From a virus: DNA of 48,996 nucleotides. A program made the translations under genes and the position numbers. The stretch lies in IMG/VR virus record IMGVR_UViG_3300045988_094163. One strand, given 5' to 3'. Below, piece after piece: positions 2,310-48,996 of this stretch; position 1 is the first letter of the stretch, and each line of letters opens with the position of its first letter. The notes beneath the pieces are model-generated. The model ran no database searches, was not told the origin of the DNA, and was given only the letters and a program-made list of their open reading frames with translations.

Positions 2310-3148
2310 CAATATATTCTGTATAGATCGCTACTCTATACACGTTCTCTTATGAACTGCTTATACTTTCATATAAGTTTAGACTATATCTTAGCATTTC
2401 TGCTCCATGCTTTTCCACACGCTTGTGTGTACTCTACTCACTTCCATTACATTTTGGATATCTAACATAATGTGTTTTCGATAGTCGTTGAATAGCTTGT
2501 TCTTTCGTTAGTTTTTGATATGAGAACAAATATCCTTTATGTTGTCTTTCAATTCCTCTGCATACATTTGCAACATGTGAGCTATTAAACCCATCATAAT
2601 GTGCTTCTTTTGTAGAGATATAACTTTTTATAAAATACCCATTGCTATCATACATATAAACTTTCTTTGATAAACTCCAATCATTGTTCTCCTTTGGAGT
2701 CACCCAACACAAATTATCTGCATTATTATTTTTTCTATTTTCGTCTTTATGATTAACATATTTTCTTTTTGATGTTTCTCCTTTTACAAAAGCCTTTGCA
2801 ACTAATCTGTTTACCCTAACATAATTTACTTTGTTGTGTTTTGTTGTAAGAGCAACATTCAAATAACCACCTGTTTTCTCATACTGCTTTAATTCTTTTC
2901 TATGAGAGACATCTACAACCTTTCCTCCGTTTGTTCTAAGAGAAAATACTCTTCCATCATAAGAAACATAATATCCATCGTTTATATGTTCAAACCCTTT
3001 TATTTTATTTATTTGTTTCACTTTCATATCAAAATCCTCCGTTTACTTTAAACTACTACTGATTACCCAATCCTTAAAATTGTCACGCTACGGTATTTAA
3101 GGCTCTAAGGGCTTCCCAGTATTTAACATGGTTAAGTACCAAAATTTT
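2310..3148 (-). mobile_element. Group I self-splicing intron (839 nt) interrupting terL and carrying an HNH homing endonuclease ORF
   Basis: 5-prime splice site after U (GCU|AAAAUUUU) and last intron base G (2310). P1: exon AGUGCU (3154-3149) pairs with intron GGUACU (3140-3135), giving the U-G wobble. R-like CAACGACUAUCG (2490-2479) and S-like AAGAUAUAGUCU (2392-2381) can form P7 (GACUAU/AUAGUC). The exons rejoin as ADSA-EPKT. Confidence 0.8.
2434..3027 (-). CDS. HNH homing endonuclease (HNH_3 type with NUMOD-like DNA-binding modules), intron-encoded
   Basis: GGAGG 8 nt upstream of ATG 3027. N-terminal GYYVSYDGRVFS module and HNH core YVNHKDENRKNNNADNLCWVTPKENN. Lies entirely inside the terL intron, and its 3-prime end overlaps the intron core. 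Confidence 0.85.
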   Translation of the reverse strand: MKVKQINKIKGFEHINDGYYVSYDGRVFSLRTNGGKVVDVSHRKELKQYEKTGGYLNVALTTKHNKVNYVRVNRLVAKAFVKGETSKRKYVNHKDENRKNNNADNLCWVTPKENNDWSLSKKVYMYDSNGYFIKSYISTKEAHYDGFNSSHVANVCRGIERQHKGYLFSYQKLTKEQAIQRLSKTHYVRYPKCNGSE

Positions 3149-4201
3149 AGCACTATCTGCACAAATAGGCTTTTCACATCTTCCTGCCCTCTCCGCTACT
3201 GCACGAACATCTTGTCTCTGTGAGAATCTATCATCTGTTATCTGATTCATGTACACTTCATCATAAATGTACAGCACTTTGTTTGCATCATCAACACAAC
3301 AACTGATAAGCGCATTGTAACTCTCTTCAAAACCAAAATCAAGACCAAAGAAATGGAATTGCGAAGAAATGCTGTTCACCTTCCGTTTGAACTCTCTGCT
3401 GTCCTTCGCAACAACAAAGTTCGGAAGTACCCTTGTTCCATTCGCTCCAAACCTTCCCCACCTTGCAACAACCCACAATTGTTTGTCTGTTCTCTTCAAT
3501 CCATCCAGACGGCGAATGTATGAAACAGGCAGGAACGGGTTATCATCTGGTAGGCTGTGATGATAATAAACACCATTCTTTTTGTTCACCAATGTTCTAC
3601 GTCTGTAAAACTCTTCTGGACTTTGTATTGTTCTCTCTCTTCCTTTATCATCTGTATGCACAAAAAAGGTATTGTATACCCAATTTTCCTTGCCGACAGG
3701 GTTTGTTGTTAAGATAAAATGCAACGTCACTTTAGGCTCTCTGATACGCCCTAGCAATTCGGTATATGCTTCATAACGGATTTCGCTACATTCTTCCATC
3801 CAAACAATGCTGACACCGTGAATGGACTTGATTTTCTCCGTATTATCCATTCCTCGGAATATGATTCTTGAACCATTCGGAAAACGGATTTCCAAAGGGC
3901 TAGAAATCGCAACCACTTTGTCCCCCTTTGGTCTGTGATTGTTTCTTACCGCTTCGTCTGATAACAACCCCATCTTTTCAAGGATTTCTTTAAACAATGC
4001 GAAACAAGATTCTTTGATTGTTTCACGCACTTGTCTTACCACCAATGCTGTTCGTTTTTCTTCCAGAAGTTTTAGTATAATCTTCAATGCTACATGGTAA
4101 CTCTTTCCGCTACCATACCCACCCAATAACAGGTATTGTTCATAATCCCAATCGGTTAGAAAAGAAGCAAATCTGTTTGACACTTCAATGTTCACATCCA
4201 T
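3149..4201 (-). CDS. terL: Terminase large subunit, exon 1 (351 aa); the spliced product is 452 aa
   Basis: Start moved to ATG 4201 (AAGGAG 9 nt upstream) because the track M1 at 4297 lies upstream of the predicted transcription start. Walker A LLLGGYGSGKSY, Walker B SIVWMEE, nuclease motifs FGLDFGFEES and ICADSA. After ADSA the frame runs only 21 codons into the intron. Confidence 0.9.
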
Positions 4202-4229
4202 GTTTGTTTGCTCCTTTGTTTTAATATGC

Positions 4230-4290
4230 ACAAAACAGATAAGTGGCAAATGTACACAATCTGATGTACACCGAACCTTATCTGTTTTGT
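4230..4290 (-). promoter_or_regulatory. 5-prime-terminal stem-loop of the terL mRNA leader (stabiliser, attenuator or protein-binding site)
   Basis: 14-bp perfect inverted repeat acaaaacagataag (4230-4243) / cttatctgttttgt (4277-4290) enclosing a UGUACA/UGUACA inner stem. It begins within a few nt of the predicted +1 of promoter 4298-4327. Confidence 0.6.
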
Positions 4291-4297
4291 CTATCAT

Positions 4298-5007: not shown

Positions 5008-5817
5008 TTAGATTCCCTTAATAGGTATCTTGATAATTGGATTATAGTCAATGTACTTTCTATTCTTTTTGCTTCGTCCTTTGTTTGATGTGTCCAACCT
5101 TACTATGTTGCTTCCCCACTTTTTACGCAACAACTCAAACTGTTCCTTTTCCCTTTCCATATTACGGTACATTGCACAACCGCCCTTTTGTTCTGACTGC
5201 CTACACACATAATGGTATTTGTTCAATCTCAATGCCCCTCTATACAGATTCATGTTCTGTAAAGTCATGTCATAATCTTCTTTTAATGGAAGTCTTTCAT
5301 CATATCTAAGTTCATTCCCTTTTAAAAAACACTGGAAAGGACCTCCTATATAGGATGTAGTGCTGAATGGTGAATACTGCCTATAAGACATTGTATCACT
5401 GTTACAATTCAATCCCCAGAATTTAAAACCCCAGTCATGGCACAATAAAGAATAACGATATAAGAAATCTAGTATTTCATCTGATTTTACTTTGACCTTT
5501 TCATACGCATATGCTTCGTCTTCTGACATTTCAAAATGTTCGATTGCTCGTAAATCATCATCGATCAATAAAACAATATCTGCACCATTTTCAAACTCTG
5601 TGTCAAGGATATAATTTCTTACTCTGCACAGATTTCCCTGCACCCCTTTCGGACACTTAACAATATTCCCATTATGTTTTGGGTTAAACTCTAAATATGT
5701 TTCATATTCTTCTGGCGCAACATAAACTTTACAGAAAGGAATATAACTTAGTGTCTCAACCTTATACCGTTTATAAGACGGACAAGCAACGATGATTTCT
5801 TTTCCCTTATACTTCAT
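5008..5817 (-). CDS. Putative GT-A-fold glycosyltransferase-like protein (269 aa)
   Basis: N-terminal beta strand IIVACPSYKR, DXD-like LLIDDDL after a hydrophobic strand, and PLKEDYDMTLQ downstream. The start overlaps the stop of the ParB-like gene by 11 nt. Assignment rests on the motif pattern only. Confidence 0.35.
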   Translation of the reverse strand: MKYKGKEIIVACPSYKRYKVETLSYIPFCKVYVAPEEYETYLEFNPKHNGNIVKCPKGVQGNLCRVRNYILDTEFENGADIVLLIDDDLRAIEHFEMSEDEAYAYEKVKVKSDEILDFLYRYSLLCHDWGFKFWGLNCNSDTMSYRQYSPFSTTSYIGGPFQCFLKGNELRYDERLPLKEDYDMTLQNMNLYRGALRLNKYHYVCRQSEQKGGCAMYRNMEREKEQFELLRKKWGSNIVRLDTSNKGRSKKNRKYIDYNPIIKIPIKGI

Positions 5818-6463
5818 TACTTGTCACCCTTTCTAACGCTTTCTGACCGTCTAGCACTCTTCCTACTCCTGCTCTCATGCCGAATGATTTCTTGTTTCCT
5901 TTCTTCTTTGTTGGGTACGCCTTTGCTTTCTCAATTCCAAACAATCCCATAGCATTGAGCCAATCAATCTTATTGTTGAACTTCAACACGATGTAATTGT
6001 TTTCTTCATTCAGTATCTCTGTGAATGGTACATCTGGTTCAACTTCTATTGTTTCATCTTCCAGTGCATCAATACTAAACCCAAACACTTCCATGTCTAT
6101 GTCCGATTTTAGAAGTTCACTGATTTCTTCATTAATCAATGTTTCATCATAACTTGATTCTGCTGTTTTGTTCTCAATCAATCTCCAAGCCTTGATTTGT
6201 TCCTCTGTCATATCATCCAGACAGATTGTAGGCACTTGTGTTAGCCCTGCTTTCTTTGCCGCAAGGATTCTTCCATGACCTTCAACAACATAATCATCTT
6301 TGTCAATTGCTACTGCCCTGTGTTCAAAGAACCCGAACTGCTTAATACTGTTCATAATTCTTTCAACCTGTTCTTTCGGATGTTTCTTTGCATTCTTCTT
6401 ATATGGTTTTAACTCTCTTATGTTTCTGTATGTTATCTTGATACCACTTGCTTTTGTTACCAT
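5807..6463 (-). CDS. ParB/Srx N-terminal (ParB-like nuclease) domain protein (218 aa)
   Basis: LKPYKKNAKKHPKEQVERIMNSIKQFGF ... VVEGHGRILAAKKAGLTQVP matches the ParBc pattern. Confidence 0.7.
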   Translation of the reverse strand: MVTKASGIKITYRNIRELKPYKKNAKKHPKEQVERIMNSIKQFGFFEHRAVAIDKDDYVVEGHGRILAAKKAGLTQVPTICLDDMTEEQIKAWRLIENKTAESSYDETLINEEISELLKSDIDMEVFGFSIDALEDETIEVEPDVPFTEILNEENNYIVLKFNNKIDWLNAMGLFGIEKAKAYPTKKKGNKKSFGMRAGVGRVLDGQKALERVTSNEV

Positions 6464-6576
6464 GTATTCTATGCCCCTTTCTATGTTCTTTGTTCTGTCT
6501 TTGTTCTAAATGGTATGTTATGTTCTATTGTTCTTTGTATACTTGTTATATACTATTCTTGTATGAACTCATAGAA

Positions 6577-14351: not shown

Positions 14352-15470
14352 TTAAGCCACCATCTGTAATTCCTGTAATGCTGTTTTATATTTATTGTTC
14401 AGTGCATACAATCTGAAATTGTTAATGGTATCTTTCTCCATTCCTTTAAATACTGCGATTGCAAGGATGTTCTTTAATTCAAGTCCTGTTTTCTCTAACT
14501 TTGTAACCATTCCAATGCAACGATAGGAGAATGTTGCCCGAATCCCATTTGTTTCTGCTTCTGTTCTGATTGCTTCCACAAAATCAACAAGTTCTTTGTT
14601 TCCTTTTGCAATGTGCATTTCAATGTTTCGGTCATAACCAAAATCAATGATTGCAAATCTATCCAGAGTTGCTTGGTCTAATACCAAACGTCCTGTATAC
14701 ATTTCATCTGCACCACTTCCAACTGTGTTTCCTGCCGCAACAACTCGGAAATTCTTATGTGCTTTGATTTTTCCGTTTGGAAACTCGAAGTATCTATTTG
14801 CGATTGCCGCATTTAACAAAACAAGAACCTCTGGTATGCTTGCATCCATTTCATCGAGAAAGAAGATACCACCATCCTTAAATGCTTTGTAAAACTCCGT
14901 TTCATGATACTTTCCTCCTGCATCAATGAAACCTGTCAACTTATATTCCTGCTGAACACTGTTTGTAAAATAGAACTCTAAACCTAAATCCCAACTAATT
15001 TGTTCAAGTGTGTAGTTCTTTCCGCTTCCTGCTGGTCCTGCAAGGTAAACAGGAATGTCATTTTCAATACAAGCCTTAATCATATTATACTTACAATGTT
15101 TTACTTCTTCATTGCAGTCATCTTTTGGTTCTGGTTTCTTAATCTCTGGCATTCTTAATTCTACACTACCATCAATGATTACTTTATCTTTTCTTCCTGC
15201 TCTGCGAAGTTCATTTGTTGTTCTATCCTCTGCTCTGAAATTCTCTGGCTCTTTATACTGTCTTCCGATTCCTTGTTCATTAAATGTGTACCAATATAAA
15301 ACTCCTTGAATTTCAAAACAATAAATACCCTGTTTTTTTAACTCTCTTATTTCCTTTGTATGTTTTCTGAATACTCTTTTAATATCAACAACACCAAAAT
15401 CTGTTCTTGTTCTTGCTACAACATGTTCTTCGTCTTTCTTAATAACCTCTACAAATGTTCTTGTTTTCAT
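14352..15470 (-). CDS. CobS/MoxR-type AAA+ (AAA_5) ATPase (372 aa)
   Basis: Walker A LAGPAGSGKN, Walker B IFFLDEMD, sensor VVAAGNTVGSGADEMYTGR and DQATLDRF. The overall pattern parallels CobS. Has a ~140-aa N-terminal extension. Confidence 0.75.
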   Translation of the reverse strand: MKTRTFVEVIKKDEEHVVARTRTDFGVVDIKRVFRKHTKEIRELKKQGIYCFEIQGVLYWYTFNEQGIGRQYKEPENFRAEDRTTNELRRAGRKDKVIIDGSVELRMPEIKKPEPKDDCNEEVKHCKYNMIKACIENDIPVYLAGPAGSGKNYTLEQISWDLGLEFYFTNSVQQEYKLTGFIDAGGKYHETEFYKAFKDGGIFFLDEMDASIPEVLVLLNAAIANRYFEFPNGKIKAHKNFRVVAAGNTVGSGADEMYTGRLVLDQATLDRFAIIDFGYDRNIEMHIAKGNKELVDFVEAIRTEAETNGIRATFSYRCIGMVTKLEKTGLELKNILAIAVFKGMEKDTINNFRLYALNNKYKTALQELQMVA

Positions 15471-27771: not shown

Positions 27772-27814
27772 AAAAAAAATAAGCCCACCTGTAAACATAC
27801 AAGCAAGCTTATTT
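27772..27814 (-). terminator. Strong intrinsic terminator closing the accessory region
   Basis: 8-bp outer stem AAAUAAGC/GCUUAUUU with an inner extension, followed by UUUUU. Confidence 0.8.
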
Positions 27815-27856: not shown

Positions 27857-28450
27857 TTACTCCTGTACTTTCAACTTCCGCATTTTGTCTTTGTACTCAA
27901 CATGGATTTGTTTCTGTATCTCAACAATGTACAACAAATCATACCCTGTTCCGTTTAGTTCCTCACATAATCTGTATATCTTTTTTAGTTCATGTTGCAC
28001 GTCCTCAAGATAACACATCATCAAATTGTAATCAATGAGCCATCCCTTTTCATAGAACACACAACACACTGCTTCATAAAACTCTTTTGTTTTCTCTTCC
28101 CACTCTTTGTATTGCTTCATAGCAGAACGAACAAACTTTGTCAACACACTATCATCAATATCCATTCTAGTGTGATTGTACCATTCCTTCGGAATTACCT
28201 CTGGTTTTTCATGTCCTTTTATCGGTATCAGTTTGTTATGAATATCTAACACCTTTTTGTGTAACTTCCGCTTTCCTATGGATTCCTCATAATACTGTAA
28301 CTCATGTATTCGTTTAAATCCATGCAACCCGATAAAGTTAAAATAGTCAGACATTCCAGAATGAAACATAAGTGCCGTTGTCATATGTTTATCTACCTCT
28401 GCATATATCTCTATACATGATAACTCTTTTAGCTGTTCTTTGTCAAGCAT
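27857..28450 (-). CDS. Ferritin-like four-helix-bundle-type protein (197 aa); function unknown
   Basis: ALMFHSGMSDYFNFIGLHGFKRIHELQYYEESIGKRKLH parallels the ferritin/Dps pattern (f...gl.Gf......EE). GGGAGGGAAGG RBS. Confidence 0.35.
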   Translation of the reverse strand: MLDKEQLKELSCIEIYAEVDKHMTTALMFHSGMSDYFNFIGLHGFKRIHELQYYEESIGKRKLHKKVLDIHNKLIPIKGHEKPEVIPKEWYNHTRMDIDDSVLTKFVRSAMKQYKEWEEKTKEFYEAVCCVFYEKGWLIDYNLMMCYLEDVQHELKKIYRLCEELNGTGYDLLYIVEIQKQIHVEYKDKMRKLKVQE

Positions 28451-28664
28451 TTTCCTTCCCTCCTTCCAATAATTCTATAATATGGTCTATCTTATTGTCC
28501 TGTTCTTCCAGATGTTCATGTACATCTCGCAACGCTCCTTTTATCATGTCCTGTACATCACTTTCTGACAGGTTTTCCTCATAGTTTGCAACACCTATCA
28601 GAAACCCGATAAAAGCCATTGCGTCTAAAGTCCGTTGATTAAACCACCCATTGTCATTTCCCAT
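28443..28664 (-). CDS. Small TM + coiled-coil protein (73 aa); second protein with BhlA-like architecture
   Basis: ATG 28664 preferred over the track GTG 28673. TM helix LDAMAFIGFLIGVANY followed by an acidic helical tail. Confidence 0.45.
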   Translation of the reverse strand: MGNDNGWFNQRTLDAMAFIGFLIGVANYEENLSESDVQDMIKGALRDVHEHLEEQDNKIDHIIELLEGGKENA

Positions 28665-28682
28665 ATTAAACACCTACACTGT

Positions 28683-29063
28683 CTACGCAGGGATTGTAGG
28701 GAAATTAAATCCCGTCTTGCACAATTCACAAGCAGATACAACAAACAAACCAGTATCTGTTGCAACATTGGTATGATATACCCTTCTACTACGAATCTGG
28801 TCTGCATGAACATTGTTTCCACACTTTGTTATTAACGGGTACTGTGTTGTTCCTGTTCCAATCGTAACCGCAACAGTCTGCGCAGATGTTACATCCGGTA
28901 AAGCCTGTGCAACACAGATACAAACCTTTTCTTTGTTACTATATGTTTCCTGTGGAATATTCAGAACCAAAACAGAACCCACAAGTGTTACACTATTTGT
29001 TCTAACAAAATGTTCGCAACCTCCACACCCAAAACCATTATTATTGTATAAACTGCAAGCCAT
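28683..29063 (-). CDS. Cys-capped beta-rich protein of unrecognised family (126 aa)
   Basis: GAAGGAGGA RBS. N-terminal MACSLYNNNGFGCGGCEHF and C-terminal SACELCKTGF flank a beta-rich core (LVLNIPQETYSNKEKVCICVAQALP). Confidence 0.55.
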   Translation of the reverse strand: MACSLYNNNGFGCGGCEHFVRTNSVTLVGSVLVLNIPQETYSNKEKVCICVAQALPDVTSAQTVAVTIGTGTTQYPLITKCGNNVHADQIRSRRVYHTNVATDTGLFVVSACELCKTGFNFPTIPA

Positions 29064-29090: not shown

Positions 29091-29121
29091 CAAAACAAAA
29101 GGGCGGTATTGAAACCGCCCC
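29091..29121 (-). terminator. Strong intrinsic terminator after 29145-29849
   Basis: GGGCGGU-UUCAAU-ACCGCCC followed by UUUUGUUUUG. Confidence 0.85.
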
Positions 29122-29144
29122 ATAACTCACGCTATATCAGCGGA

Positions 29145-29849
29145 TTAGCAACAAGAGTTACAACCACAACCATTTCCATATGTACCATATAATCCTCTTG
29201 TTGCATACATATTAGATTCATATGGTGAGCAGGTCAGATATGCAGGCGTTGGTGTTGGTCTTAACTGTCCGATAATGTTTGCACTCTGTGCCTGCTGTGA
29301 CAACTGGAAATTCGCTGTCTGCAACTGGTCACGAAGTGTCTGCACTTCATTCTGAACCATGTGGTCAATAATTCTCTGTGTGTTTCTGTCATTGTTCTGC
29401 ATGATGTCACAGCAACACTGACTTAACTGGAACTTTGCACTGTCAATGTTTCTGTTTGTTTCACAGCAACACTGCTGTGCGTCAAACCTGCTCTGGTTAA
29501 TTGCCGCATTTACTCCTGAGAATCCAGAACAAAGGTCACGCTGTACACCATTGAAACCATTGAGCATTGTTGTGTTCTGTGCATAGAATCCATCGCAAAG
29601 ACCATTTTCCAGACCATTCAGTTTGTTCATAACATTCTGGTTGTCAAATCCTCTCTGCACCTCTGCGCTTGTTGCAAGCTGTTCTGCTCCACGATTGTTT
29701 CCGAAGAAGCCACCTCCACCCCAAGCGAGTAGGAAGAATAAGAAAAACACCCAAGAACCATTGCCGCCAAACATTCCATCATTGTCATAGCCATCCCTCT
29801 GCAATGCGAGAGCATCTGCTACACTTAAACCGCTTCCATCCATACCCAT
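29145..29849 (-). CDS. Single-pass membrane protein with a Q/N-rich ectodomain and CCC motifs (234 aa); unrecognised family
   Basis: AAAGGAGG RBS. TM helix GGNGSWVFFLFFLLAWGGGGFFGNN. Internal duplications LCDGF/LCSGF and QQCCCE/SQCCCD. C-terminus GNGCGCNSCC. Confidence 0.6.
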   Translation of the reverse strand: MGMDGSGLSVADALALQRDGYDNDGMFGGNGSWVFFLFFLLAWGGGGFFGNNRGAEQLATSAEVQRGFDNQNVMNKLNGLENGLCDGFYAQNTTMLNGFNGVQRDLCSGFSGVNAAINQSRFDAQQCCCETNRNIDSAKFQLSQCCCDIMQNNDRNTQRIIDHMVQNEVQTLRDQLQTANFQLSQQAQSANIIGQLRPTPTPAYLTCSPYESNMYATRGLYGTYGNGCGCNSCC

Positions 29850-29888
29850 AGTATGTACCTCCTTTAAATTATTTTATTTATATAAACC

Positions 29889-30104
29889 TTATCGGTTTAT
29901 ACCATGATTGTTTTGTTTTCCCATCATTCCAGAAAACTGTTTTTCAAATTGTGCATAGGCTTCATTAAGGTCAATTCCTCTTTGTTTGCACAGATTGTTT
30001 GCAATCTGCTTTAACTCTTCCTCAGACTTTCCCTGTGCCATCTGTTGCGCTCTCTGAAATAACGGGTTACTTCTTAACATCTGATTTACCATTTGTTGCA
30101 TCAT
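29889..30104 (-). CDS. Small Q/M-rich helical protein (71 aa)
   Basis: GAAGGAGG 9 nt upstream. Overlaps the upstream gene by 38 nt. Confidence 0.55.
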   Translation of the reverse strand: MMQQMVNQMLRSNPLFQRAQQMAQGKSEEELKQIANNLCKQRGIDLNEAYAQFEKQFSGMMGKQNNHGINR

Positions 30105-30555
30105 AAGGCATTACCTCCTTCAACCCTTCAATCTGTCTGTTTAATTCTCCGACGATTCTTTCAAAATCTTCTCGTAACACATACTGCTGTGTTTTGTTTC
30201 CATTATCTCGTTTTGTTTCACCTTGTTTCTGTTCCTGTAACACATAGGTTTTCAATTCAGCAGAACCATCCAATAATATCTGTTTTGTGTAGATACAATT
30301 GTTTGCAATATCTGTAAACACAAATAATGTTCCGTCAAGGTCAATCATACTTGCTTTTGCTTCATCATAACTTGATACTGGTCTACCCTTTAGAGCTTGC
30401 ATCTGTGTTCCCATCTGCTGTGTATTCTGCATTTGATAATTGTTCGGCTGATATGTTCCAACATTATATTGCTGTTCCATCTGGTTCAACCGATTCTGTG
30501 CTAACTGCTGTTGGTATGGACTCATTCCATATCCAGTGTTGTAGTTTCCATACAT
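30067..30555 (-). CDS. Protein with a Q/N-rich low-complexity N-terminus and a compact C-terminal domain (162 aa)
   Basis: GAAGGAGGG RBS. The first 55 aa contain 14 Q and 8 N, followed by GRPVSSYDEAKASMIDLDGTLFVFTDIANNCIYTK. Confidence 0.6.
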   Translation of the reverse strand: MYGNYNTGYGMSPYQQQLAQNRLNQMEQQYNVGTYQPNNYQMQNTQQMGTQMQALKGRPVSSYDEAKASMIDLDGTLFVFTDIANNCIYTKQILLDGSAELKTYVLQEQKQGETKRDNGNKTQQYVLREDFERIVGELNRQIEGLKEVMPYDATNGKSDVKK

Positions 30556-30675
30556 CTATGTTCCCTCCTTCTATCTTCTCTGCTACTTCTCACCTTTGTT
30601 ATGATTCTATTATATAATGGGTAAAATTCTCGAAATATAAATAAAGTATACGTTAAGTATCTGAAAAGAATTGCA

Positions 30676-30701
30676 ACAAAAAAGGAGAGCTTTCGCTCTC
30701 C
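30676..30701 (-). terminator. Strong intrinsic terminator ending the head-tail operon
   Basis: GGAGAGC-GAAA-GCUCUCC followed by UUUUUUG. Confidence 0.9.
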
Positions 30702-30707
30702 CAATTC

Positions 30708-30857
30708 TTAAAACATCTTGCCAATTTTCATCAGCATTTTACTATGTTTCTTTTTTATTGTTATCTCTGACATTCCTAATTCATCTGCAATAAATGCCAT
30801 TGTTTTCTGTTCCTTGTAATGCAACCACAATATTCGCTTTTCTTCCTCACTCAACAT
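30708..30857 (-). CDS. Sigma-70 region-4 / LuxR-type HTH mini protein (49 aa), below the track cutoff
   Basis: MLSEEEKRILWLHYKEQKTMAFIADELGMSEITIKKKHSKMLMKIGKMF fits L.e.E..il.l.y.e..s..eIAeeLgiS..Tik. The ATG overlaps the end of 30847-31092, and the stop lies 7 nt before the terminator. Confidence 0.55.
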   Translation of the reverse strand: MLSEEEKRILWLHYKEQKTMAFIADELGMSEITIKKKHSKMLMKIGKMF

Positions 30858-31092
30858 AACTAGCATTTGCGGATTCTCCATCCGCATTGATATCTACATC
30901 ACTGCTACTGTCAATTGTTTCTGTCATAACATAGTCGAATTGACTTTCGTACCATACAAAACCACTATAACCGATAACTGCTTCAAGAAACATCAAAACG
31001 ATTAACAATGTAATTATCTTGTCTTTAAATTTATTTGATTTTCGATATTCCTTTTGCACATCTAACAGAACTCTATCAAATTCATCACCCAT
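30847..31092 (-). CDS. Small membrane protein (81 aa)
   Basis: TM helix IITLLIVLMFLEAVIGYSGFVWY with an acidic C-terminus. AAAGGAG RBS. Confidence 0.55.
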   Translation of the reverse strand: MGDEFDRVLLDVQKEYRKSNKFKDKIITLLIVLMFLEAVIGYSGFVWYESQFDYVMTETIDSSSDVDINADGESANASYVE

Positions 31093-31106: not shown

Positions 31107-32036
31107 TTACATATTGCTTTCTTTATATGCTCCGTCTTTCTTAATGTTTACAACTCCTGTTTGATATGTTCCGTTTACTTTTTGGTACATCATTCCGGCT
31201 ACATATTCACTGTTCTTTTTAATATAACAATTTGCTTGTAATTTAAAAATCGCATACACTCTATCATTATCAAAAACTTTTGTGTCGTACGAAACATACA
31301 AACCAGAACCATTGCTTTCTGTATTCCATCCTAAAAATTCATAATTTCTACGAACTGCAACTGGTAATTTATGTTCTTCCCCTCCAATCGCATCTCCATA
31401 ATATCTGTTAATTACGATTTTATTTTGTCCTTCTACTGTCCCGCCATTTGTACTTGCATCAAATACAATGTTAAATACAATTCTTTCCCAGACAGCATAT
31501 AGTGTAACAGATGCATTGCTTGTATAACTTCCTCCCGCTTTATAAGTTGGTTTAGTAGCACCTTTATTCGTGCTCCAACCTAAAAAATTATATCCAACTC
31601 TAGTTGGTATTGCTTTAGACAAAGTTAATGTTTTCCCATATGTTTTCGTCTGTTTACTAGGTGCACCAGAACCACCATTCGCATTATAAGATATAGTATA
31701 AGTTGGAGTAGGTGCTACAAAACTATACGATGCTGACGATTCGTAGTAACTTGTTCCTGTGTAATTTGCAGAAGCTGAAATTGTTGTGCTACTACCATAC
31801 CTTACATCTACGGAACTCCAACCAGAAATAGCATAATCTCCAACGCCATAGATATATACATTTCCCGCCCAACTTGTGCTCAAGTTTGTTCCGTAAAAAT
31901 CTCCTGCTGTGACAGTTACCCATCTTCTGTATTGTAACCTATAATAACCATTTCCTAAGTCATGATAACTGTATTCGATTCTTGTTTGAAAATAGGATGG
32001 GCTAGGTCCTGCTGTGGTTCCATATACAATTGCCAT
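31107..32036 (-). CDS. Tail fibre / receptor-binding protein with Listeria-Bacteroides (Flg_new) repeats (309 aa)
   Basis: YTISYNANGGSGAPSKQTKTYGKTLTLSKAIPTRVGYNFLGWSTN...VTLYAVW, plus a second degenerate copy ...RRNYEFLGWNTESNGSG...RVYAIF. Confidence 0.6.
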   Translation of the reverse strand: MAIVYGTTAGPSPSYFQTRIEYSYHDLGNGYYRLQYRRWVTVTAGDFYGTNLSTSWAGNVYIYGVGDYAISGWSSVDVRYGSSTTISASANYTGTSYYESSASYSFVAPTPTYTISYNANGGSGAPSKQTKTYGKTLTLSKAIPTRVGYNFLGWSTNKGATKPTYKAGGSYTSNASVTLYAVWERIVFNIVFDASTNGGTVEGQNKIVINRYYGDAIGGEEHKLPVAVRRNYEFLGWNTESNGSGLYVSYDTKVFDNDRVYAIFKLQANCYIKKNSEYVAGMMYQKVNGTYQTGVVNIKKDGAYKESNM

Positions 32037-32050
32037 AATAACACACCCTC

Positions 32051-32755
32051 CTATTCTACAATTCGAATATAAATATCTCCGTCTTTTCCAACCGAATTAT
32101 CTGGCTCTGCTGTTCCACTTCTTATCACTTGCATACTCTGTTTAATTTGGTTAATCTGGTTTAACAAATTCCCAGCCACATCTTCTCCTAATGTTCCTTT
32201 TACTTCATTAAGCCATTCATTAAACATAGAATCATATTGTAAGAATAACTCTGTCTCGTCAATCTGTTTTATTAATCCTTCTACAAAACCACAATATTCC
32301 TTATCTGGTCTTTTGTCTGTTATATCAGAATTTTTTATAGTTCCAGTTCCAACACTAACATTAATTGTTGCAAGCACAAGTTCATGAATTGTTCCATCGT
32401 TTATCGGCTTATCTGTTTTTACATCTTCTTTTTTCTCTATTGTTATCTGTCTGTTTGTTTTGTTTAAAATGCAACATATAGAATCTGTAATCACATAACT
32501 TGTTGTGTTTGGATTAAGAATAATTTCTTTATCCTCAGTTAATTCATACCAATATCCATCTATGTATGCACTACCTTTTCTCACCACAACTGATAACCCT
32601 GTTTTTGCAACCACTTTCAATTGGTTCGTTGGTGTTACGAAAACACCATTCGAAATAAACCTAGAAAAATAATTTGCAAAATCAGACGCATCATATGTCC
32701 TGTCATATATTCCATTAAATTCCAACGCATTAAAAAATCCGCTTTGTTCTGCCAC
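32051..32755 (-). CDS. Putative tail fibre / baseplate-associated structural protein (234 aa)
   Basis: GTG 32755 with GGGAGG upstream. N-terminal SGFFNALEFNGIYDRTYDASDFANYFSRFISNGVF is a motif recurrent in Gram-positive phage fibre proteins. Confidence 0.4.
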   Translation of the reverse strand: MAEQSGFFNALEFNGIYDRTYDASDFANYFSRFISNGVFVTPTNQLKVVAKTGLSVVVRKGSAYIDGYWYELTEDKEIILNPNTTSYVITDSICCILNKTNRQITIEKKEDVKTDKPINDGTIHELVLATINVSVGTGTIKNSDITDKRPDKEYCGFVEGLIKQIDETELFLQYDSMFNEWLNEVKGTLGEDVAGNLLNQINQIKQSMQVIRSGTAEPDNSVGKDGDIYIRIVE

Positions 32756-32814
32756 TTTTTTTCCTCCCTTCTTTACTTTAATAATTATATCACAACAAAA
32801 CTTAATTGTCAATA

Positions 32815-47421: not shown

Positions 47422-48456
47422 TTACACAATATCAATAATCAACTTATCAGCCGCAATTCCGATAACACCTGCATAACCATCATAACCACCGCCAACTTGA
47501 TTATCAATCTGATAAGGATAATAAGATTCGTTGTTAATATCGGACAAACAATATTTTGCATATTTATATTTGTACCCTGATGGTGTCAAATATTCCGCTT
47601 CCAACGCCTGAATCGGAGAACCATCACCAACAACCCCATTGACTAAATCATTGACATTGTATGATTGTCCGAAAATAATATATTCAAGCCATCCATTCTT
47701 CTGTGTACACACTCTTGCTTTCAATTTTCCAACAGACACTCTAAAGCCTAAATATTTTAACGGCTCACCGTCTCTCGCTCCAATCCAGTCAGTAGCGTTC
47801 AAGACTTCGTCCCACCATCTATCAGTATACCCTCTCGTCCAGATATTAACCTTTCCTAATTCTTTAAGTCCACCTGTGTTCGGAACAACAGAGCCTTGTG
47901 GTCTTGGTTTTGAGACATCACTTGCACCAGAACTAGCCTGTTTATTAATTCCATCTGCAATGAGTCTCGCAATCCCTTTTACACCTAAAGAATTATAAAT
48001 GTCAACATCATGTTTGTTATCACAAAACAATGTTTCGATAATCATAGCTGGCATAACAGAAGCCGTCAAATCGTGATATCCTGTGCTATATTTTGTTCCT
48101 CTGTTGTAAAATCCCTTTGATTTAAAGTTCTTACAAATCTGTTCTGCAATCTGATTCATGTTTCCATTAGACTGGTCATATAGCCAACATTCAACGCCAT
48201 TTGCCACACTATTAAATGCATTCATATGTATCGAAACAAAGATATCACATCCATTTGCATTTGCTTTACTTGTTCCATCATACAATTCCTGCCCTTCGCT
48301 ATATGCATCGGAATTACAATTAACAATCGTATGTCCTTGTGCTGTCAGCATCGGTACAAGTTCATTATAGACTTTCCTTACTTCTGCCTGTTCATCCAAA
48401 TAGCCAATTTTGCCTTTACAATTCGGTGAATGTCCACCTCTTAACCCGATTTTCAT
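47422..48456 (-). CDS. Endolysin: N-acetylmuramoyl-L-alanine amidase (Amidase_3 type) with an unrecognised C-terminal wall-binding domain (344 aa)
   Basis: GLRGGHSPN, LDEQAE, IFVSIHMNA and AMIIETLFCDN match the Amidase_3 zinc and catalytic positions. Downstream of two holins. Confidence 0.85.
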   Translation of the reverse strand: MKIGLRGGHSPNCKGKIGYLDEQAEVRKVYNELVPMLTAQGHTIVNCNSDAYSEGQELYDGTSKANANGCDIFVSIHMNAFNSVANGVECWLYDQSNGNMNQIAEQICKNFKSKGFYNRGTKYSTGYHDLTASVMPAMIIETLFCDNKHDVDIYNSLGVKGIARLIADGINKQASSGASDVSKPRPQGSVVPNTGGLKELGKVNIWTRGYTDRWWDEVLNATDWIGARDGEPLKYLGFRVSVGKLKARVCTQKNGWLEYIIFGQSYNVNDLVNGVVGDGSPIQALEAEYLTPSGYKYKYAKYCLSDINNESYYPYQIDNQVGGGYDGYAGVIGIAADKLIIDIV

Positions 48457-48459
48457 GTT

Positions 48460-48714
48460 TTAAACCTCCTGTTCTTCTTTTGTTTCATGTTCTGATTCTA
48501 CTTCTGGGATTCCCGCAACACTGATAGCAACACTAATCACAGCCGCAACACCAGACACAGAAAAAATGTGTGCCCAGCCTACCTCGTTAAACGCCTGACC
48601 AACTGTTACCATCGAAACAAATGTTTCTGCGAATGTTTTAACTGCACGAACCCATGTTGCTTTTGCCCATTTTTTTGTATCTACTGACACTTTAAACACT
48701 GCATTTTTAAACAT
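48460..48714 (-). CDS. Holin (phi LC3 / LL-H-like), 84 aa
   Basis: AAAGGAGG RBS. KWAKATWVRAVKTFAETFVSMVTV... plus a second TM helix FSVSGVAAVISVAISVAGI. Acidic C-terminus. Confidence 0.7.
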   Translation of the reverse strand: MFKNAVFKVSVDTKKWAKATWVRAVKTFAETFVSMVTVGQAFNEVGWAHIFSVSGVAAVISVAISVAGIPEVESEHETKEEQEV

Positions 48715-48741
48715 ATATTCTCACCTCCTTTGTTTTATTTA

Positions 48742-48996
48742 CTATTTAATTGAGTGTTTAATGTCAATTATACCATCACTCAATTCATCAATCTTATCCC
48801 ATTGCCTTTTTTGACCCTCTCTCACTTTATCTTTGTAATCATCAAATTCTTTGATATGCTGTTTTAACTCTTCGTCTCTTTCATCCATCTTTTCTGCTAT
48901 TCTGTCTATCCTAGACACGAGGATAGACATTGCCTTAGTGTTATCATTCAATGGTTTAAACAACATCACAAACAATCCAATCAAAGAGGATAAACA
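48742..48996 (-). CDS. 3-prime part of the BhlA/UviB-like holin-type gene that starts at 113 (wraps the junction)
   Basis: In-frame continuation across the 77-bp overlap. Coiled-coil tail RIDRIAEKMDERDEELKQHIKEF. Confidence 0.5.
   Translation of the reverse strand, partial: CLSSLIGLFVMLFKPLNDNTKAMSILVSRIDRIAEKMDERDEELKQHIKEFDDYKDKVREGQKRQWDKIDELSDGIIDIKHSIK
48920..48996. repeat. Second copy of the 77-bp terminal overlap
   Basis: Identical to 1-77. Confidence 0.95.

Follow-up and report, generated by a model that had tools for sequence, protein, structure and literature searches.

An ordered phage gene cassette around a predicted membrane-anchored, fibre-like protein

Genes and features of the locus

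Three minus-strand genes, encoding proteins A (162 aa), B (71 aa) and C (234 aa), lie between two strong terminators in the window, by which we mean the whole 48,996-nucleotide stretch of viral DNA analysed here. This arrangement had been proposed in the original prediction, and the ORF list, a hairpin scan and folding calculations agree on it. The trio had also been taken to be a closed unit. However, gene D starts only about 35 nt past the second terminator (T1), and a scan found no promoter-like site in between, so D, E and F probably depend on read-through. Comparisons of related loci further showed that D, E and F downstream, and a regulator gene upstream, belong to the same unit. It is thus well supported that the full unit is an ordered, self-contained cassette of 6-7 genes, of which A-B-C form only the promoter-proximal half, predicted to be the more highly expressed one. 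The order of its parts, which is also well supported, is as follows.

30847..31092, minus strand: small membrane protein gene (ORF, 81 aa)
30708..30887, minus strand: regulator gene (59 aa, Pfam Sigma70_r4)
30683..30702, minus strand: terminator T0 (hairpin and T-run scan, folding)
30609..30661, minus strand: activator-type promoter (three direct repeats and TATAAT)
30067..30555, minus strand: A (ORF, 162 aa)
29889..30104, minus strand: B (ORF, 71 aa)
29145..29849, minus strand: C (ORF, 234 aa)
29100..29121, minus strand: internal terminator T1 (hairpin and T-run scan, folding)
28683..29063, minus strand: D (ORF, 126 aa)
28443..28673, minus strand: E (ORF, 76 aa)
27857..28450, minus strand: F (ORF, 197 aa)
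27777..27814, minus strand: terminator T2 (17-bp stem then T-run), closing the cassette

Searches of Pfam, NCBIfam, PDB sequences and Foldseek placed none of the trio in a named family, in agreement with the original prediction; A and C matched only PHROGs annotated as function unknown (phrog_21718 at 3.3e-9 and phrog_16490 at 1.7e-20, respectively). The Q/N-rich N-terminus reported for A holds, with exactly 40.0% Q+N in the first 55 residues. This Q/N/P/Y-rich region carries a conserved motif, QQRLxQMEQQY, and is followed by a small alpha/beta domain (GRPVSS..DEAKA..IDLDG..FVF.D....IYTKQ) and a C-terminal coiled-coil helix. An iterative search gathered 134 family members in the loci; no Pfam match was found in 63 members, and none in the PDB. 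B is helical and, as described earlier, Q/M-rich (26.8% Q+M), with NP motifs in its M/Q-rich N-terminus followed by GKSxEEL..NLCKQRGID. Its gene has its own ribosome-binding site, AAGGAGG, and by ORF coordinates overlaps A, not C, by the 38 nt previously given. PDB matches of B were only of helix-loop-helix type (TAL repeats and the 130-residue 'Gogy') and were uninformative.

C is, as had been proposed, a predicted single-pass membrane protein with one transmembrane (TM) helix, and it has family-conserved cysteines among its 13 Cys. Its best 17-residue hydrophobic window, VFFLFFLLAWGGGGFFG, has a hydropathy of 1.84, and in 66 of 126 family sequences the strongest hydrophobic stretch scores above 1.6. 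A short acidic N-tail (a mean of 3.9 D/E residues) with a conserved helix, LSVADALAL, precedes the Gly-flanked TM helix at residues 32-50; K+R counts in its flanks (58 versus 25) show a mild preference for the N-terminus inside. Residues 61-196 form a rod with 11-residue GF repeats and then a heptad coiled coil, and the hydrophobic period is 3.64 residues. AF2, run on a 95-sequence alignment, predicted this stretch as one 136-residue helix of ~20 nm (pLDDT 81-93 over 120-190). Beyond the rod lie LRPxPxPAYxTCSPY and a Pro/Cys-rich C-terminal tail, GCGC..CC. Within the rod, Cys 85, 107, 127-129 and 147 are conserved in the family, positions 228 and 230 are Cys in ~90% of its members, and the ectodomain motifs CCCETNRNID, QLSQxAQ and PAYxTCSPY are kept across phyla. 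The internal duplication seen earlier in C is better described as periodicity, with GF every 11 residues and layers of cysteines; of the second CCC, C147 alone is conserved. The N-terminal segment of enterobacterial homologues is a weakly hydrophobic Gly zipper (~0.8 by hand estimate), which makes membrane insertion there uncertain. GC content over C is 0.42-0.44 compared with ~0.35 nearby in the window, a rise that Gly, Cys and Ala codons could partly explain.

The window D is Cys-rich and beta-rich, with CxxC pairs at 13/16 and 112/115, and Cys3 is near-invariant in its family; it shows 66% identity to its counterpart in Dulem virus 36 and 41% to that in XP41-N3. It starts M-x-C with no hydrophobic leader, and it lacks a signal peptide and a lipobox. 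Window-type D had no Pfam match in 32 members and none in the PDB. An alternative D in the same slot (cluster c7) matched BclA_C (PF18573, 2.4e-6, 27.9 bits, below the Pfam cut-off of 38 bits). Since this sub-cut-off match concerns the alternative type only, and hhalign gave a probability of 0.4% for the two types being related, we rejected a BclA_C/C1q-TNF-like domain for the window D. E has an N-terminal hydrophobic or amphipathic helix (hydropathy 1.41) and then a charged coiled-coil helix, with no significant PDB match; polar residues within the hydrophobic stretch of the family alignment make its membrane insertion doubtful. F appears to be a ferritin-like helical bundle with conserved H30, E56, E118, E154 and H183, and its sequences carry the four-helix bundle signature of the ferritin-like superfamily. 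A profile of 14 sequences matched PDB ferritins over helices A-B (5ls9 at 6.9e-5, with 3kx9, 5v5k and 1s3q, all <=5e-4) and contained a weak second ferritin stretch over helices C-D. In the canonical ferroxidase ligand set (E17, E50, H53, E94, E130), the alignment places Q at E17 and a variable residue at H53. No enzyme domain was found in any cassette protein in Pfam or NCBIfam, and the only NCBIfam match bearing on anti-phage defence was a chance-level one (E = 0.13) of protein E to a retron Ec48 effector. Export signals are lacking in all of A, B, D, E and F, A and B having no signal peptide.

Terminators, promoter and regulator

The scan found 8 hairpin and T-run sites in 6 kb compared with 1.8 expected, including those at 30702-30683 and 29121-29100. 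The first, T0, consists of GGGAGAGC-GAAA-GCTCTCC then a T-run (-15.5 kcal/mol, z = -3.27), and its stem is preserved in one relative through two compensatory pair changes. The second, T1, consists of GGGGCGGT-TTCAAT-ACCGCCC then a T-run (-15.5 kcal/mol, z = -3.35) and probably attenuates transcription, leaving less of D-E-F than of A-B-C. A third, T2, follows F (27814-27777, -19.7 kcal/mol, z = -5.55). Among non-redundant relatives, terminator-like hairpins were present upstream of A in 49 of 83 and downstream of C in 31 of 67, as against 108 of 1033 at all other gene junctions. The insulation of the cassette exceeds chance.

The A promoter has a TATAAT (30614-30609) and, as first noticed, no -35 box: the hexamer 17 nt upstream is TATTTC, which matches TTGACA at 1 of 6 positions, whereas a perfect TTGACA-17-TATAAT is present elsewhere in the window at 32812 and 27082. 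The missing box is replaced by three TATACTT-type repeats, GATACTT (30661-30655), TATACTT (30650-30644) and TATATTT (30639-30633), spaced exactly 11 bp apart, the last overlapping the -35 position. The window contains a single tandem ATACTT-N5-ATACTT, against an expectation of 0.07, and across 85 non-redundant loci ATACTT occurs 30 times upstream of A where 4.2 are expected, an enrichment of ~7-fold. The promoter region is near-invariant in three relatives, and similar repeats are visible in more distant loci. The unusual promoter and the flanking terminators thus recur, in line with the layout first proposed.

The gene that T0 closes off had been counted as the end of the head-tail operon, but it encodes a 59-aa protein with the helix-turn-helix of sigma-70 region 4 (Pfam Sigma70_r4 at 2.9e-8, 33.5 bits against a cut-off of 24.1; Sigma70_r4_2 at 3.4e-7), so T0 closes the tail operon plus a regulator gene. 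Its PHROG match falls among transcription regulators, and an NCBIfam match to sigma70-ECF (1e-7) is below cut-off. Profile matches cover region 4 only, with no sigma region 2, in this 59-aa protein, which is 5'-truncated or recombined relative to the 77-aa versions in relatives. We therefore rejected a sigma factor in its own right and regard it as a predicted region-4-like DNA-binding protein and a candidate activator of the A promoter. Directly upstream, overlapping by 41 nt, lies the gene for the 81-aa protein, which has a single TM segment, IITLLIVLMFLEAVIGYSGFVWY, and an acidic C-terminal tail, and no Pfam or PHROG family match; it is a possible membrane partner of the regulator.

Distribution and links to fibre genes

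Searches of 84 loci with the window proteins (tblastn) found the genes at fixed offsets, with A in 76, B in 76 (between A and C), F in 74, the regulator in 69 (upstream of A), D in 51 and the 81-aa membrane protein at the equivalent relative position in 46. In distant loci, small genes upstream join the HMM family of the regulator. Among 139 loci with a called C gene, A was present in 116, a D-type gene 3' of C in 117 (80 of the window type and 37 BclA_C-like), E in 41 and an F-type gene in 95 (72 ferritin-like, 20 DUF7841 and 3 rubrerythrin-like). Nearly all of 80 IMG/VR relatives carry the cassette in one order, which recurs in 80 GTDB loci from many phyla. Synteny is thus conserved, and its absence, which the original prediction had named as refuting, was not observed. 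In total, the order recurs in ~140 loci of gut phages, whose hosts include Melainabacteria as well as Firmicutes, Negativicutes, Bacteroidota and spirochaetes, among others. Anaerobes are the hosts of most carriers; some carriers belong to hosts without an outer membrane (C. perfringens phages and Lachnospiraceae and Oscillospiraceae contigs) and some to non-sporulating hosts (Bacteroidales, Treponema, E. coli and Negativicutes). An order conserved across phyla, in hosts with and without an outer membrane, suggests that the cassette probably serves something general in phage biology.

C also occurs apart from the rest, in T1-like and 9NA-like coliphages and in crAss-like phages; in the coliphages (T1-like Drexlerviridae, and 9NA-like and BASEL Queuovirinae), C is accompanied by three linked genes. 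In the window, most relatives, Drexlerviridae and Queuovirinae, C lies 3' of tail-fibre genes, and in damhaus and JenP1 it directly follows an S74-type fibre gene. It does not directly follow a fibre gene in XP41-N3, Dulem virus 39, C3_41T2LP and PJ16; in the first two and in C3_41T2LP, a Bacteroides phage, the cassette is in early or replication regions. In crAss-like phages it lies within the tail gene block, and in two crAss-like subfamilies C is two genes past a predicted holin and adjoins a LysB/FtsL-like gene. Four temperate loci (L120, L131, L138 and L141) have the cassette in the lysis-cassette slot between tail genes and integrase.

Several fusions bear on C. Two loci, L064 and L065, contain a natural in-frame A-C fusion and have lost B, which is therefore possibly dispensable; D is disrupted in L064. 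Coliphage KurtStettler fuses a fibre, Peptidase_S74 (1e-14) and C, and P0320, a 557-aa fibre-like protein in an equivalent gene context, ends in the C rod without the TM segment. Because the domains fused to the N-terminus of C (A, or fibre and S74) are cytoplasmic, these proteins would place that terminus inside, although both fusions could be tolerated defects. S74 was seen only in enterobacterial neighbours and fusions and in none of 164 non-enterobacterial loci, and A, B and C had no Tfa/Caudo_TAP or Peptidase_S74 match in Pfam. C is conserved while the adjacent fibres vary (PMC8594841). On E. coli K-12, phages can do without their lateral fibres (PMC8594841).

The C family is large: clustering at 50% identity gives at least 2,579 clusters, and a 90%-clustered database contains more than 7,500 matches. 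Yet A, B, C and window-type D have no assignment in Pfam, NCBIfam, PDB or Foldseek, and we found no description of the role of the C cassette. Roughly half of the proteins of Drexlerviridae and Queuovirinae coliphages are still unassigned (PMC13164509). The presence of C and linked genes in culturable model coliphages makes the cassette directly testable. Side products of the analysis are a compact, predicted activator-promoter pair and a natural fibre-S74-anchor-rod protein.

Possible roles and comparison with known systems

Taken as a whole, these observations are best explained, in our tentative view, by a fibre-like structure in the envelope of the infected cell, produced late and under the control of an activator. 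The regulator would bind the three 11-bp-spaced TATACTT repeats and, being encoded last in the tail operon, would cause the cassette to fire after the structural genes. C would insert in the cytoplasmic membrane with its N-terminus inside and project a ~20-nm coiled-coil rod, probably as a trimer, with the helix taken from structure prediction and the assembly deduced. Layers of cysteines may lock the rod: CCC would occupy a core position, and the C-terminal CxC/CC would form a cystine knot resembling that of collagen III. A, and B with it, would sit on the cytoplasmic N-terminal helix of C, and D, E and F would be made in smaller amounts through read-through. Such a tail-fibre-like structure, planted late in the envelope of the infected cell, would act on adsorption or an envelope step, perhaps by preventing superinfection or renewed adsorption, or else by conditioning the envelope at release, apart from primary holin-endolysin lysis. 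The apparent fibre ancestry of C (the P0320 rod, the position after fibre genes and a D slot open to a BclA_C/C1q-like protein) counts for this reading, as does the autonomy of a cassette found in early or replication regions and beside predicted holins. Other points count against it. Covalent Cys knots make more sense in a long-lived virion fibre than in a cell about to lyse, and ectodomain motifs kept across phyla are odd for a protein masking host-specific receptors. To our knowledge, the exclusion proteins described so far are single genes, not six-gene cassettes. In addition, D, E and F lack signal peptides and so would have no contact with the C ectodomain before lysis, which fits better with a C-inside topology or a virion role.

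A virion role would make C a side-fibre, a tip part or a trans-acting fibre assembly factor, its Gly-rich hydrophobic N-terminus serving as a docking element or as a membrane-penetrating one that resembles a fusion peptide. The other proteins, A, B, D, E and F, would help assembly or form part of the fibre tip. We consider this somewhat improbable, although much fits: the commonest position of the cassette is directly after tail-fibre or receptor-binding genes (next after S74-type fibres in damhaus and JenP1, and inside the tail gene block in crAss-like phages), the rod is fused to a fibre-like part in P0320 and to an S74 chaperone in KurtStettler, a BclA_C/C1q-like protein can fill the D slot, and Cys knots with a 20-nm rod are typical of stable extracellular fibres. 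The strongly hydrophobic, TM-like helix in most C family members speaks against it, as do insulation from the tail operon under a separate regulator, the early-region or replication-region location of the cassette in XP41-N3, Dulem virus 39 and C3_41T2LP, the absence of S74 from the non-enterobacterial loci and of homology to Tfa or other chaperone families, and the conservation of C beside variable fibres (PMC8594841). Carrying the membrane anchor over into lysis, C could instead be spanin-like or class-III-holin-like and act with its partners in late envelope disruption or lysis timing after holin and endolysin, which we judge unlikely. Its architecture (N-terminal TM, long extracytoplasmic coiled coil and conserved Cys, as predicted from hydropathy, AF2 and flank charges for a type II protein) is that of i-spanins and T4 holin T, its TM segment is a Gly-zipper, and regulator-gated expression after the tail genes suits a last step. 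The holin and LysB/FtsL-like neighbours in two crAss-like subfamilies and the four loci with the cassette in the lysis slot point the same way, together with a gene 5' of the cassette in L133 and L141 that we take to be XhlA-like from our own reading of the sequence, made without a family search. However, lysis genes are already present at 47422-48996 of the window, comprising a BhlA-like gene, a holin and an endolysin (holin-like gene 48460-48713; endolysin 47422-48456, phrog_435 at 2e-58, 18 kb from C), and no cassette protein had a lysis-category PHROG or Pfam match. This canonical pair elsewhere led us to reject C as the primary lysis protein; C as a holin was set aside on the same distance and on the absence of a holin family match in Pfam, PHROG or NCBIfam. 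C as an i-spanin was rejected for want of an o-spanin lipoprotein, D having no signal peptide or lipobox and no lipobox ORF appearing among the window ORFs of >=30 aa, and because carriers include hosts without an outer membrane (C. perfringens and Lachnospiraceae). Known holins are smaller and less fibrous than C. T1-like phages, moreover, come with a holin, endolysin and unimolecular spanin of their own.

The C-inside topology would have the N-tail outside and the Cys-rich rod in the cytoplasm, binding metals with D and F in an intracellular metal or redox complex. The lack of export signals on A, B, D, E and F, the ferritin-like F with its His-rich DUF7841 or rubrerythrin-like alternatives, Cys clusters suited to metal binding in a reducing cytoplasm, acidic N-tails that can be translocated, a P0320 rod that folds without export and the predominance of phages of anaerobes are all consistent with such a complex. 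It nevertheless seems improbable: the K+R counts slightly favour the N-terminus inside, the N-terminal fusions, if functional, are incompatible with one outside, the F alignment does not retain the ferroxidase residues E17 and H53, and the cassette contains no enzyme domain. The original prediction had favoured a moron-like accessory system, possibly at the spore surface. An ordinary moron or lysogenic-conversion cassette would account for the private promoter and terminators, the position at the end of the tail operon and the slightly higher GC over C, but the distribution largely refutes it and we regard it as very improbable. The cassette is not sporadic; its order is kept in phages of many phyla and extends to virulent coliphages and crAss-like phages, a scan of ~40 window ORFs showed no integrase, and its presence in phages of non-sporulating hosts leaves the spore-surface role without support. 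Extending the envelope-fibre reading, the cassette might, though we doubt it, be a previously unrecognised cross-phylum device in which a region-4-only activator, possibly held by its membrane partner, fires a dedicated promoter late to build a covalently knotted, trimeric, membrane-anchored coiled-coil fibre for an undescribed envelope step of the lytic cycle. Such a fibre would derive from tail-fibre modules, have the architecture of a fusion protein and act in release or against re-adsorption in hosts with and without an outer membrane.

Among known lysis proteins, the i-spanins (lambda Rz and P2 LysB) share with C an N-terminal anchor, a long extracytoplasmic coiled coil, conserved Cys and a compact phage cassette, and in crAss cr53_1 C adjoins the LysB/FtsL-like gene. 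In contrast to them, the C cassette has no o-spanin partner and no sequence or PHROG relation to lysis families; the predicted C rod consists of one unbroken 136-residue helix in which 11-residue repeats and CCC occur, and C belongs to a set with A, B, D, E, F and a dedicated regulator. The class III holin T4 gpT (218 aa, against 234 aa for C) likewise has ~30 cytoplasmic residues, one TM and a ~180-residue outside domain with Cys. The T4 T ectodomain is globular and binds RI, whereas that of C is a predicted fibrous rod, and there is no homology between the two. S74/Tfa chaperone modules resemble C in gene position directly after fibre genes and in the KurtStettler fusion, but the window C has neither domain, carries a strongly hydrophobic anchor and belongs to a cassette also found away from tail genes.

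Class I fusion subunits (influenza HA2 and HIV gp41) have, like C, a Gly/Phe-rich hydrophobic N-terminal segment and then a long coiled coil; C lacks a second anchor and a heptad-repeat-2 region, and with no structural match in Foldseek the likeness is an analogy only. The GenBank label 'spike protein/glycoprotein' carried by crAss homologues may, we conjecture, stem from this layout. The adjacent cysteines in or at the end of the rod recall cystine-knotted fibres (collagen III GPCCG, COMP/matrilin and the BclA exosporium nap), although C has no collagen repeats and no homology to them, and many hosts are strict anaerobes. Lambdoid morons share a private promoter and terminator after the tail genes, but here there are 6-7 genes in a cross-phylum order, virulent phages and a dedicated regulator. 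The S74-TM fusion form of C appears to mirror the domain order of MYRF, a eukaryotic membrane-bound factor. Finally, the single-pass membrane gene beside a sigma-70 region-4 gene and the non-canonical -35 resemble ECF sigma/anti-sigma pairs; by comparison, the regulator here consists of region 4 only (59-77 aa) and its neighbour has no detected anti-sigma domain.

Conserved gene order around three uncharacterized genes

A larger conserved cassette contains the three genes A, B and C for which an accessory system had been predicted, and this conservation extends to both gene order and phylogenetic breadth. ORF calls bore out the trio on the minus strand, including the overlap of B with A, and the features surrounding it in the window are as follows.

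Features of the window, read along the minus strand
47422-48996, minus: lysis cassette, with a BhlA/XhlA-like gene that runs off the window end, a holin-like gene (48460-48713) and an endolysin gene (47422-48456)
31107-32036, minus: receptor-binding-like protein with Listeria-Bacteroides repeats, directly ahead of the cassette in the gene listing
30847-31092, minus: 81-aa single-pass membrane protein, overlapping the start of the regulator gene by 41 nt
30702-30683, minus: T0, terminator upstream of A; -15.5 kcal/mol, z about -3.3
Between T0 and A: promoter repeats GATACTT, TATACTT and TATATTT, exactly 11 bp apart, the last overlapping the -35 position
30067-30555, minus: A, 162 aa
29889-30104, minus: B, 71 aa, starting 38 nt before the end of A, with its own AAGGAGG site
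29145-29849, minus: C, 234 aa
29121-29100, minus: T1, terminator between C and the next gene, D; -15.5 kcal/mol, z about -3.3
27814-27777, minus: T2, terminator after the genes D, E and F; -19.7 kcal/mol, z = -5.6, the strongest of the three

The window is a siphovirus genome. The lysis cassette lies upstream of the portal region rather than behind the tail genes, and is followed by the portal region, scaffold, major head protein, tail tube, tape measure, Dit and tail proteins. The A-F cassette is succeeded by genes for a primase, SSB, DNA polymerase and UvsX-like recombinase, and at a greater distance by ParB, glucosyltransferase-like and terminase genes. A scan of roughly 40 window ORFs turned up no integrase. 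The glucosyltransferase-like gene (5008-5817, minus; glucosyl-HMC type, phrog_842, 2e-15) hints at DNA modification. Also encoded are a CobS/porphyrin-biosynthesis-like AAA ATPase (14352-15470, minus; phrog_249, 5e-59) and, immediately behind the gene for the terminase large subunit (3083-4297), an HNH endonuclease (2434-3027, minus), past which the next large ORF (125-1429, 434 aa) had no PHROG match.

Conserved synteny of the trio in related genomes had been named as a test of the original prediction, and its gene order is indeed kept in loci from IMG/VR, GenBank and GTDB. Dulem virus 36 encodes homologues of A, B, C, D, E and F in an order identical to that of the window, and the Clostridium perfringens phage XP41-N3 has A, B, C, D and F in window order. 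In total, 503 IMG/VR stretches encode a relative of C. We placed the remaining genes by tblastn in 84 loci (80 kept from IMG/VR and 4 GenBank phage loci).

Position relative to C and occurrence of cassette genes (tblastn, 84 loci)
Regulator (sigma-70 region-4 protein, 59 aa in the window): about -1000 nt; 69/84
A: about -650 nt; 76/84
B: about -230 nt; 76/84
D: about +800 nt; 51/84
E: about +1200 nt; 21/84
F: about +1400 nt; 74/84

The same order was found in 80 further loci from GTDB genomes, mostly on contigs of 30-50 kb with a few within large contigs, from taxa that include Lachnospiraceae, Oscillospiraceae, Negativicutes, Bacteroidales, Treponema, Melainabacteria, Mycoplasmatota, Mucispirillaceae and Cetobacterium. 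Among 139 loci with a called C gene, A was present in 116, a D-type gene in 117 (80 of the window type and 37 of a second type) and an F-type gene in 95. Small upstream genes of distant loci joined the same region-4 family in HMM searches. The C family is large, with more than 7,500 matches in a 90%-clustered database, and at 50% identity comprises 2,579 clusters at E ≤ 1e-3 or 1,409 at E ≤ 1e-10.

Promoter repeats, terminators and the region-4 regulator

Terminator scanning and folding recovered a GC-rich hairpin with a T-run on each side of the trio, as had been proposed. The head-tail operon had been described as ending at the first of these, T0; the last gene before it encodes the 59-aa regulator, a sigma-70 region-4 protein (Pfam 2.9e-8). 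The second, T1, is present, but the claim that it closes the operon fared less well, as D starts about 35 nt beyond it and a scan of this gap found no promoter-like site. D, E and F therefore probably rely on read-through of T1, which could thereby set the stoichiometry of A-B-C relative to D-E-F.

Upstream of A, a TATAAT (30614-30609) lacks a -35 box, the hexamer at that distance being TATTTC, whereas perfect sigma-70 consensus promoters are present elsewhere in the window. One of these, TTGACA-17-TATAAT with a TG extension (32784-32812, minus), lies among the tail genes, where the gene for a 253-aa tail protein (32051-32812) begins. The tandem repeat pattern between T0 and A occurs once in the window against 0.07 expected, and ATACTT was counted 30 times in upstream regions from 85 non-redundant loci, where 4.2 would be expected, with similar repeats visible upstream of A in many relatives. 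Among close relatives the repeat region is nearly unchanged and the T0 stem shows two compensatory changes. Of 83 non-redundant loci, 49 have a terminator-like hairpin upstream of A, and the junction downstream of C has one in 31 of 67, compared with 108 of 1,033 other junctions. Both the repeat promoter and the terminators are conserved.

The region-4 protein may bind the repeats and switch the promoter on and, as the tail operon ends with its gene, expression of the cassette would come after that of the structural genes, that is, late. The 81-aa membrane protein gene lies directly upstream of the regulator in 46 of 84 loci, a layout that resembles an anti-sigma/sigma pair; if the two act in such a manner, the cassette would respond to a signal. 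Recombination has altered the 5′ end of the regulator gene in the window (30708-30960, minus, compared with homologous loci L005, L008 and L036): the protein has 77 residues and starts MDKHNAKTRKK in relatives but has 59 and starts MRMENPQ in the window, with the junction just ahead of MLSEEEK.

Predicted properties of the encoded proteins

None of A to E matched a functional family in Pfam, NCBIfam or PHROGs, in agreement with the original prediction for the trio. For C, AF2 was unusable with a shallow 41-sequence alignment (pLDDT 45) and worked only with 95 diverse sequences, which gave a transmembrane helix (32-43) and a single unbroken helix (61-196), with pLDDT 81-93 over 120-190 and the final 38 residues disordered. 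C is thus predicted to be a transmembrane anchor bearing a 20-nm rod. Its hydrophobic segment has a hydropathy of 1.84, and counts of K+R on either side of it point to an N-inside topology (58 to 25), which C would then adopt. The internal duplication described earlier is present as a repeat, although it is periodic in nature and conserved only in part: the hydrophobic period is 3.64 residues and GF recurs every 11 residues from 88 to 122. Of 13 cysteines, those at 85, 107, 127-129, 147, 207, 228 and 230 are conserved in the family, and manual heptad assignment put the middle cysteine of the CCC motif on a core position. The C-terminal CxC/CC offers an analogy with the collagen III cystine knot, and C may form a trimer locked by such knots. 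Foldseek of the C model against BFVD and PDB gave no match at E ≤ 0.001, and the family profile found nothing significant among PDB sequences.

A and B may bind C. A has a low-complexity N terminus (40.0% Q/N over the first 55 residues, as noted previously), a small alpha/beta domain and a C-terminal helix; it had no family in the databases searched and its profile found nothing significant among PDB sequences. A is not a paralogue of C, as their joint clustering was due to one fusion ORF (BLASTP E = 0.7). B is a helix-loop-helix protein whose profile matched nothing in PDB beyond helix-loop-helix units of the TAL-repeat kind and 'Gogy', a protein of 130 residues. D is beta-rich with a nearly invariant Cys3; its window type had no match in Pfam or PDB-sequence profile searches, and the second type matched BclA_C at 2.4e-6, below the Pfam cut-off. 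E is a small helical protein, its membrane insertion doubtful, whose profile found only generic coiled coils in PDB; we rejected it as a holin because most members have a hydrophobic helix that is both short and polar. F carries a ferritin-like signature (5ls9 at 6.9e-5); other phages have DUF7841 (1.9e-19) or a protein resembling rubrerythrin in its slot. hhalign linked neither the two D types, nor the F types, nor crAss gp65 to D.

Genomic contexts, fusions and possible function

In enterobacterial phages, C and three other conserved genes occur together (phrog_9288, 9157, 8329 and 7239, function unknown in PHROGs). The gene for the lateral tail fibre precedes C in Drexlerviridae (damhaus) and in Queuovirinae (JenP1, slur01). 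This fibre ends in a Peptidase_S74 chaperone in damhaus (Pfam) and in JenP1 (annotated 'endosialidase-like'). The Escherichia phage KurtStettler encodes both parts, separate genes in JenP1, as one 510-aa protein (bas22_0024; L165:3900-5432) in the order fibre-like N terminus, Peptidase_S74 chaperone, Gly-zipper segment and C-type Cys rod. This domain order is identical to that of eukaryotic MYRF, a membrane-bound transcription factor (ICA domain, transmembrane segment, luminal domain). An iterative search found no S74 in 164 non-enterobacterial loci. The genes after C (damhaus, L166:5467-6540; PJ16, L003:4483-5603) encode a His-rich helical protein of about 110 aa, a beta-rich one of about 165 aa and a helical one of about 85 aa (phrog_9157, 8329 and 7239); these are possible analogues of F, D and E, to which no homology was detectable.

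C lies between terminase and portal in PJ16. The cassette has early or replication genes as neighbours in XP41-N3, Dulem virus 39 and Bacteroides phage C3_41T2LP, and in some temperate loci it occupies the usual lysis slot, with tail genes on one side and integrase on the other. Two crAss-like subfamilies carry a full-architecture C homologue two genes past a predicted holin, inside the tail block; in cr53_1, a DUF7841 gene (by cluster membership) directly precedes it. The cr53_1 homologue and its neighbours (L004:4521-5435, 5453-5893, 5937-6500) contain in-frame TAG under table 11, consistent with stop-codon reassignment. P0320 (557 aa) lies in a cassette setting, ahead of an 80-aa gene and then a DUF7841 gene; it lacks the anchor, and its C rod continues straight on from a fibre-like N-terminal part. 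An in-frame deletion in L064 (5614-6669) and L065 fuses A to C (351 aa), with B lost and D truncated; these cassettes may be decaying, or B and D may be dispensable. Collectively, these contexts and fusions show that the cassette is autonomous and mobile, that the C rod is evolutionarily tied to tail-fibre modules and that the N terminus of C tolerates cytoplasmic fusions.

We tentatively favour, as a possible rather than a probable reading, a fibre-like structure that is set into the infected cell's envelope and acts on adsorption, exclusion or release. Against it count the lack of an export signal in D, E and F and the conservation of the C ectodomain across phyla; covalent knots would also better suit a virion part. 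Of the main rivals, we consider a virion-fibre or fibre-assembly role rather unlikely. An accessory role in lysis is less probable still; the window has a canonical lysis cassette, so that primary lysis does not fall to the trio, and a two-component spanin was rejected, as there is no lipoprotein partner and some hosts have no outer membrane. In two distant loci (L133:6576-6914 and L141:5353-5682), a protein of about 110 aa ahead of the cassette, which begins with a coiled coil and carries a transmembrane segment at its C terminus, looked XhlA-like by eye. We regard a cytoplasmic metal or redox complex as improbable, and a plain moron as very improbable, the distribution not matching that of a classical moron. 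The Cys-rich C terminus had raised a RiPP or bacteriocin precursor, which we dismissed given that C is a 234-aa anchored rod and modifying enzymes are absent, and a spore-coat or exosporium function does not fit a cassette found in phages of non-sporulating hosts.

The literature searched contained no description of the cassette, and the BASEL paper gives the label 'lateral tail fiber chaperone' without a reason. About half of T1 proteins are still unassigned according to a 2026 T1-like genome paper (PMC13164509). The composition of the cassette matches no known system, although the cassette may yet turn out to be a variant of one that assembles fibres or disrupts the envelope.
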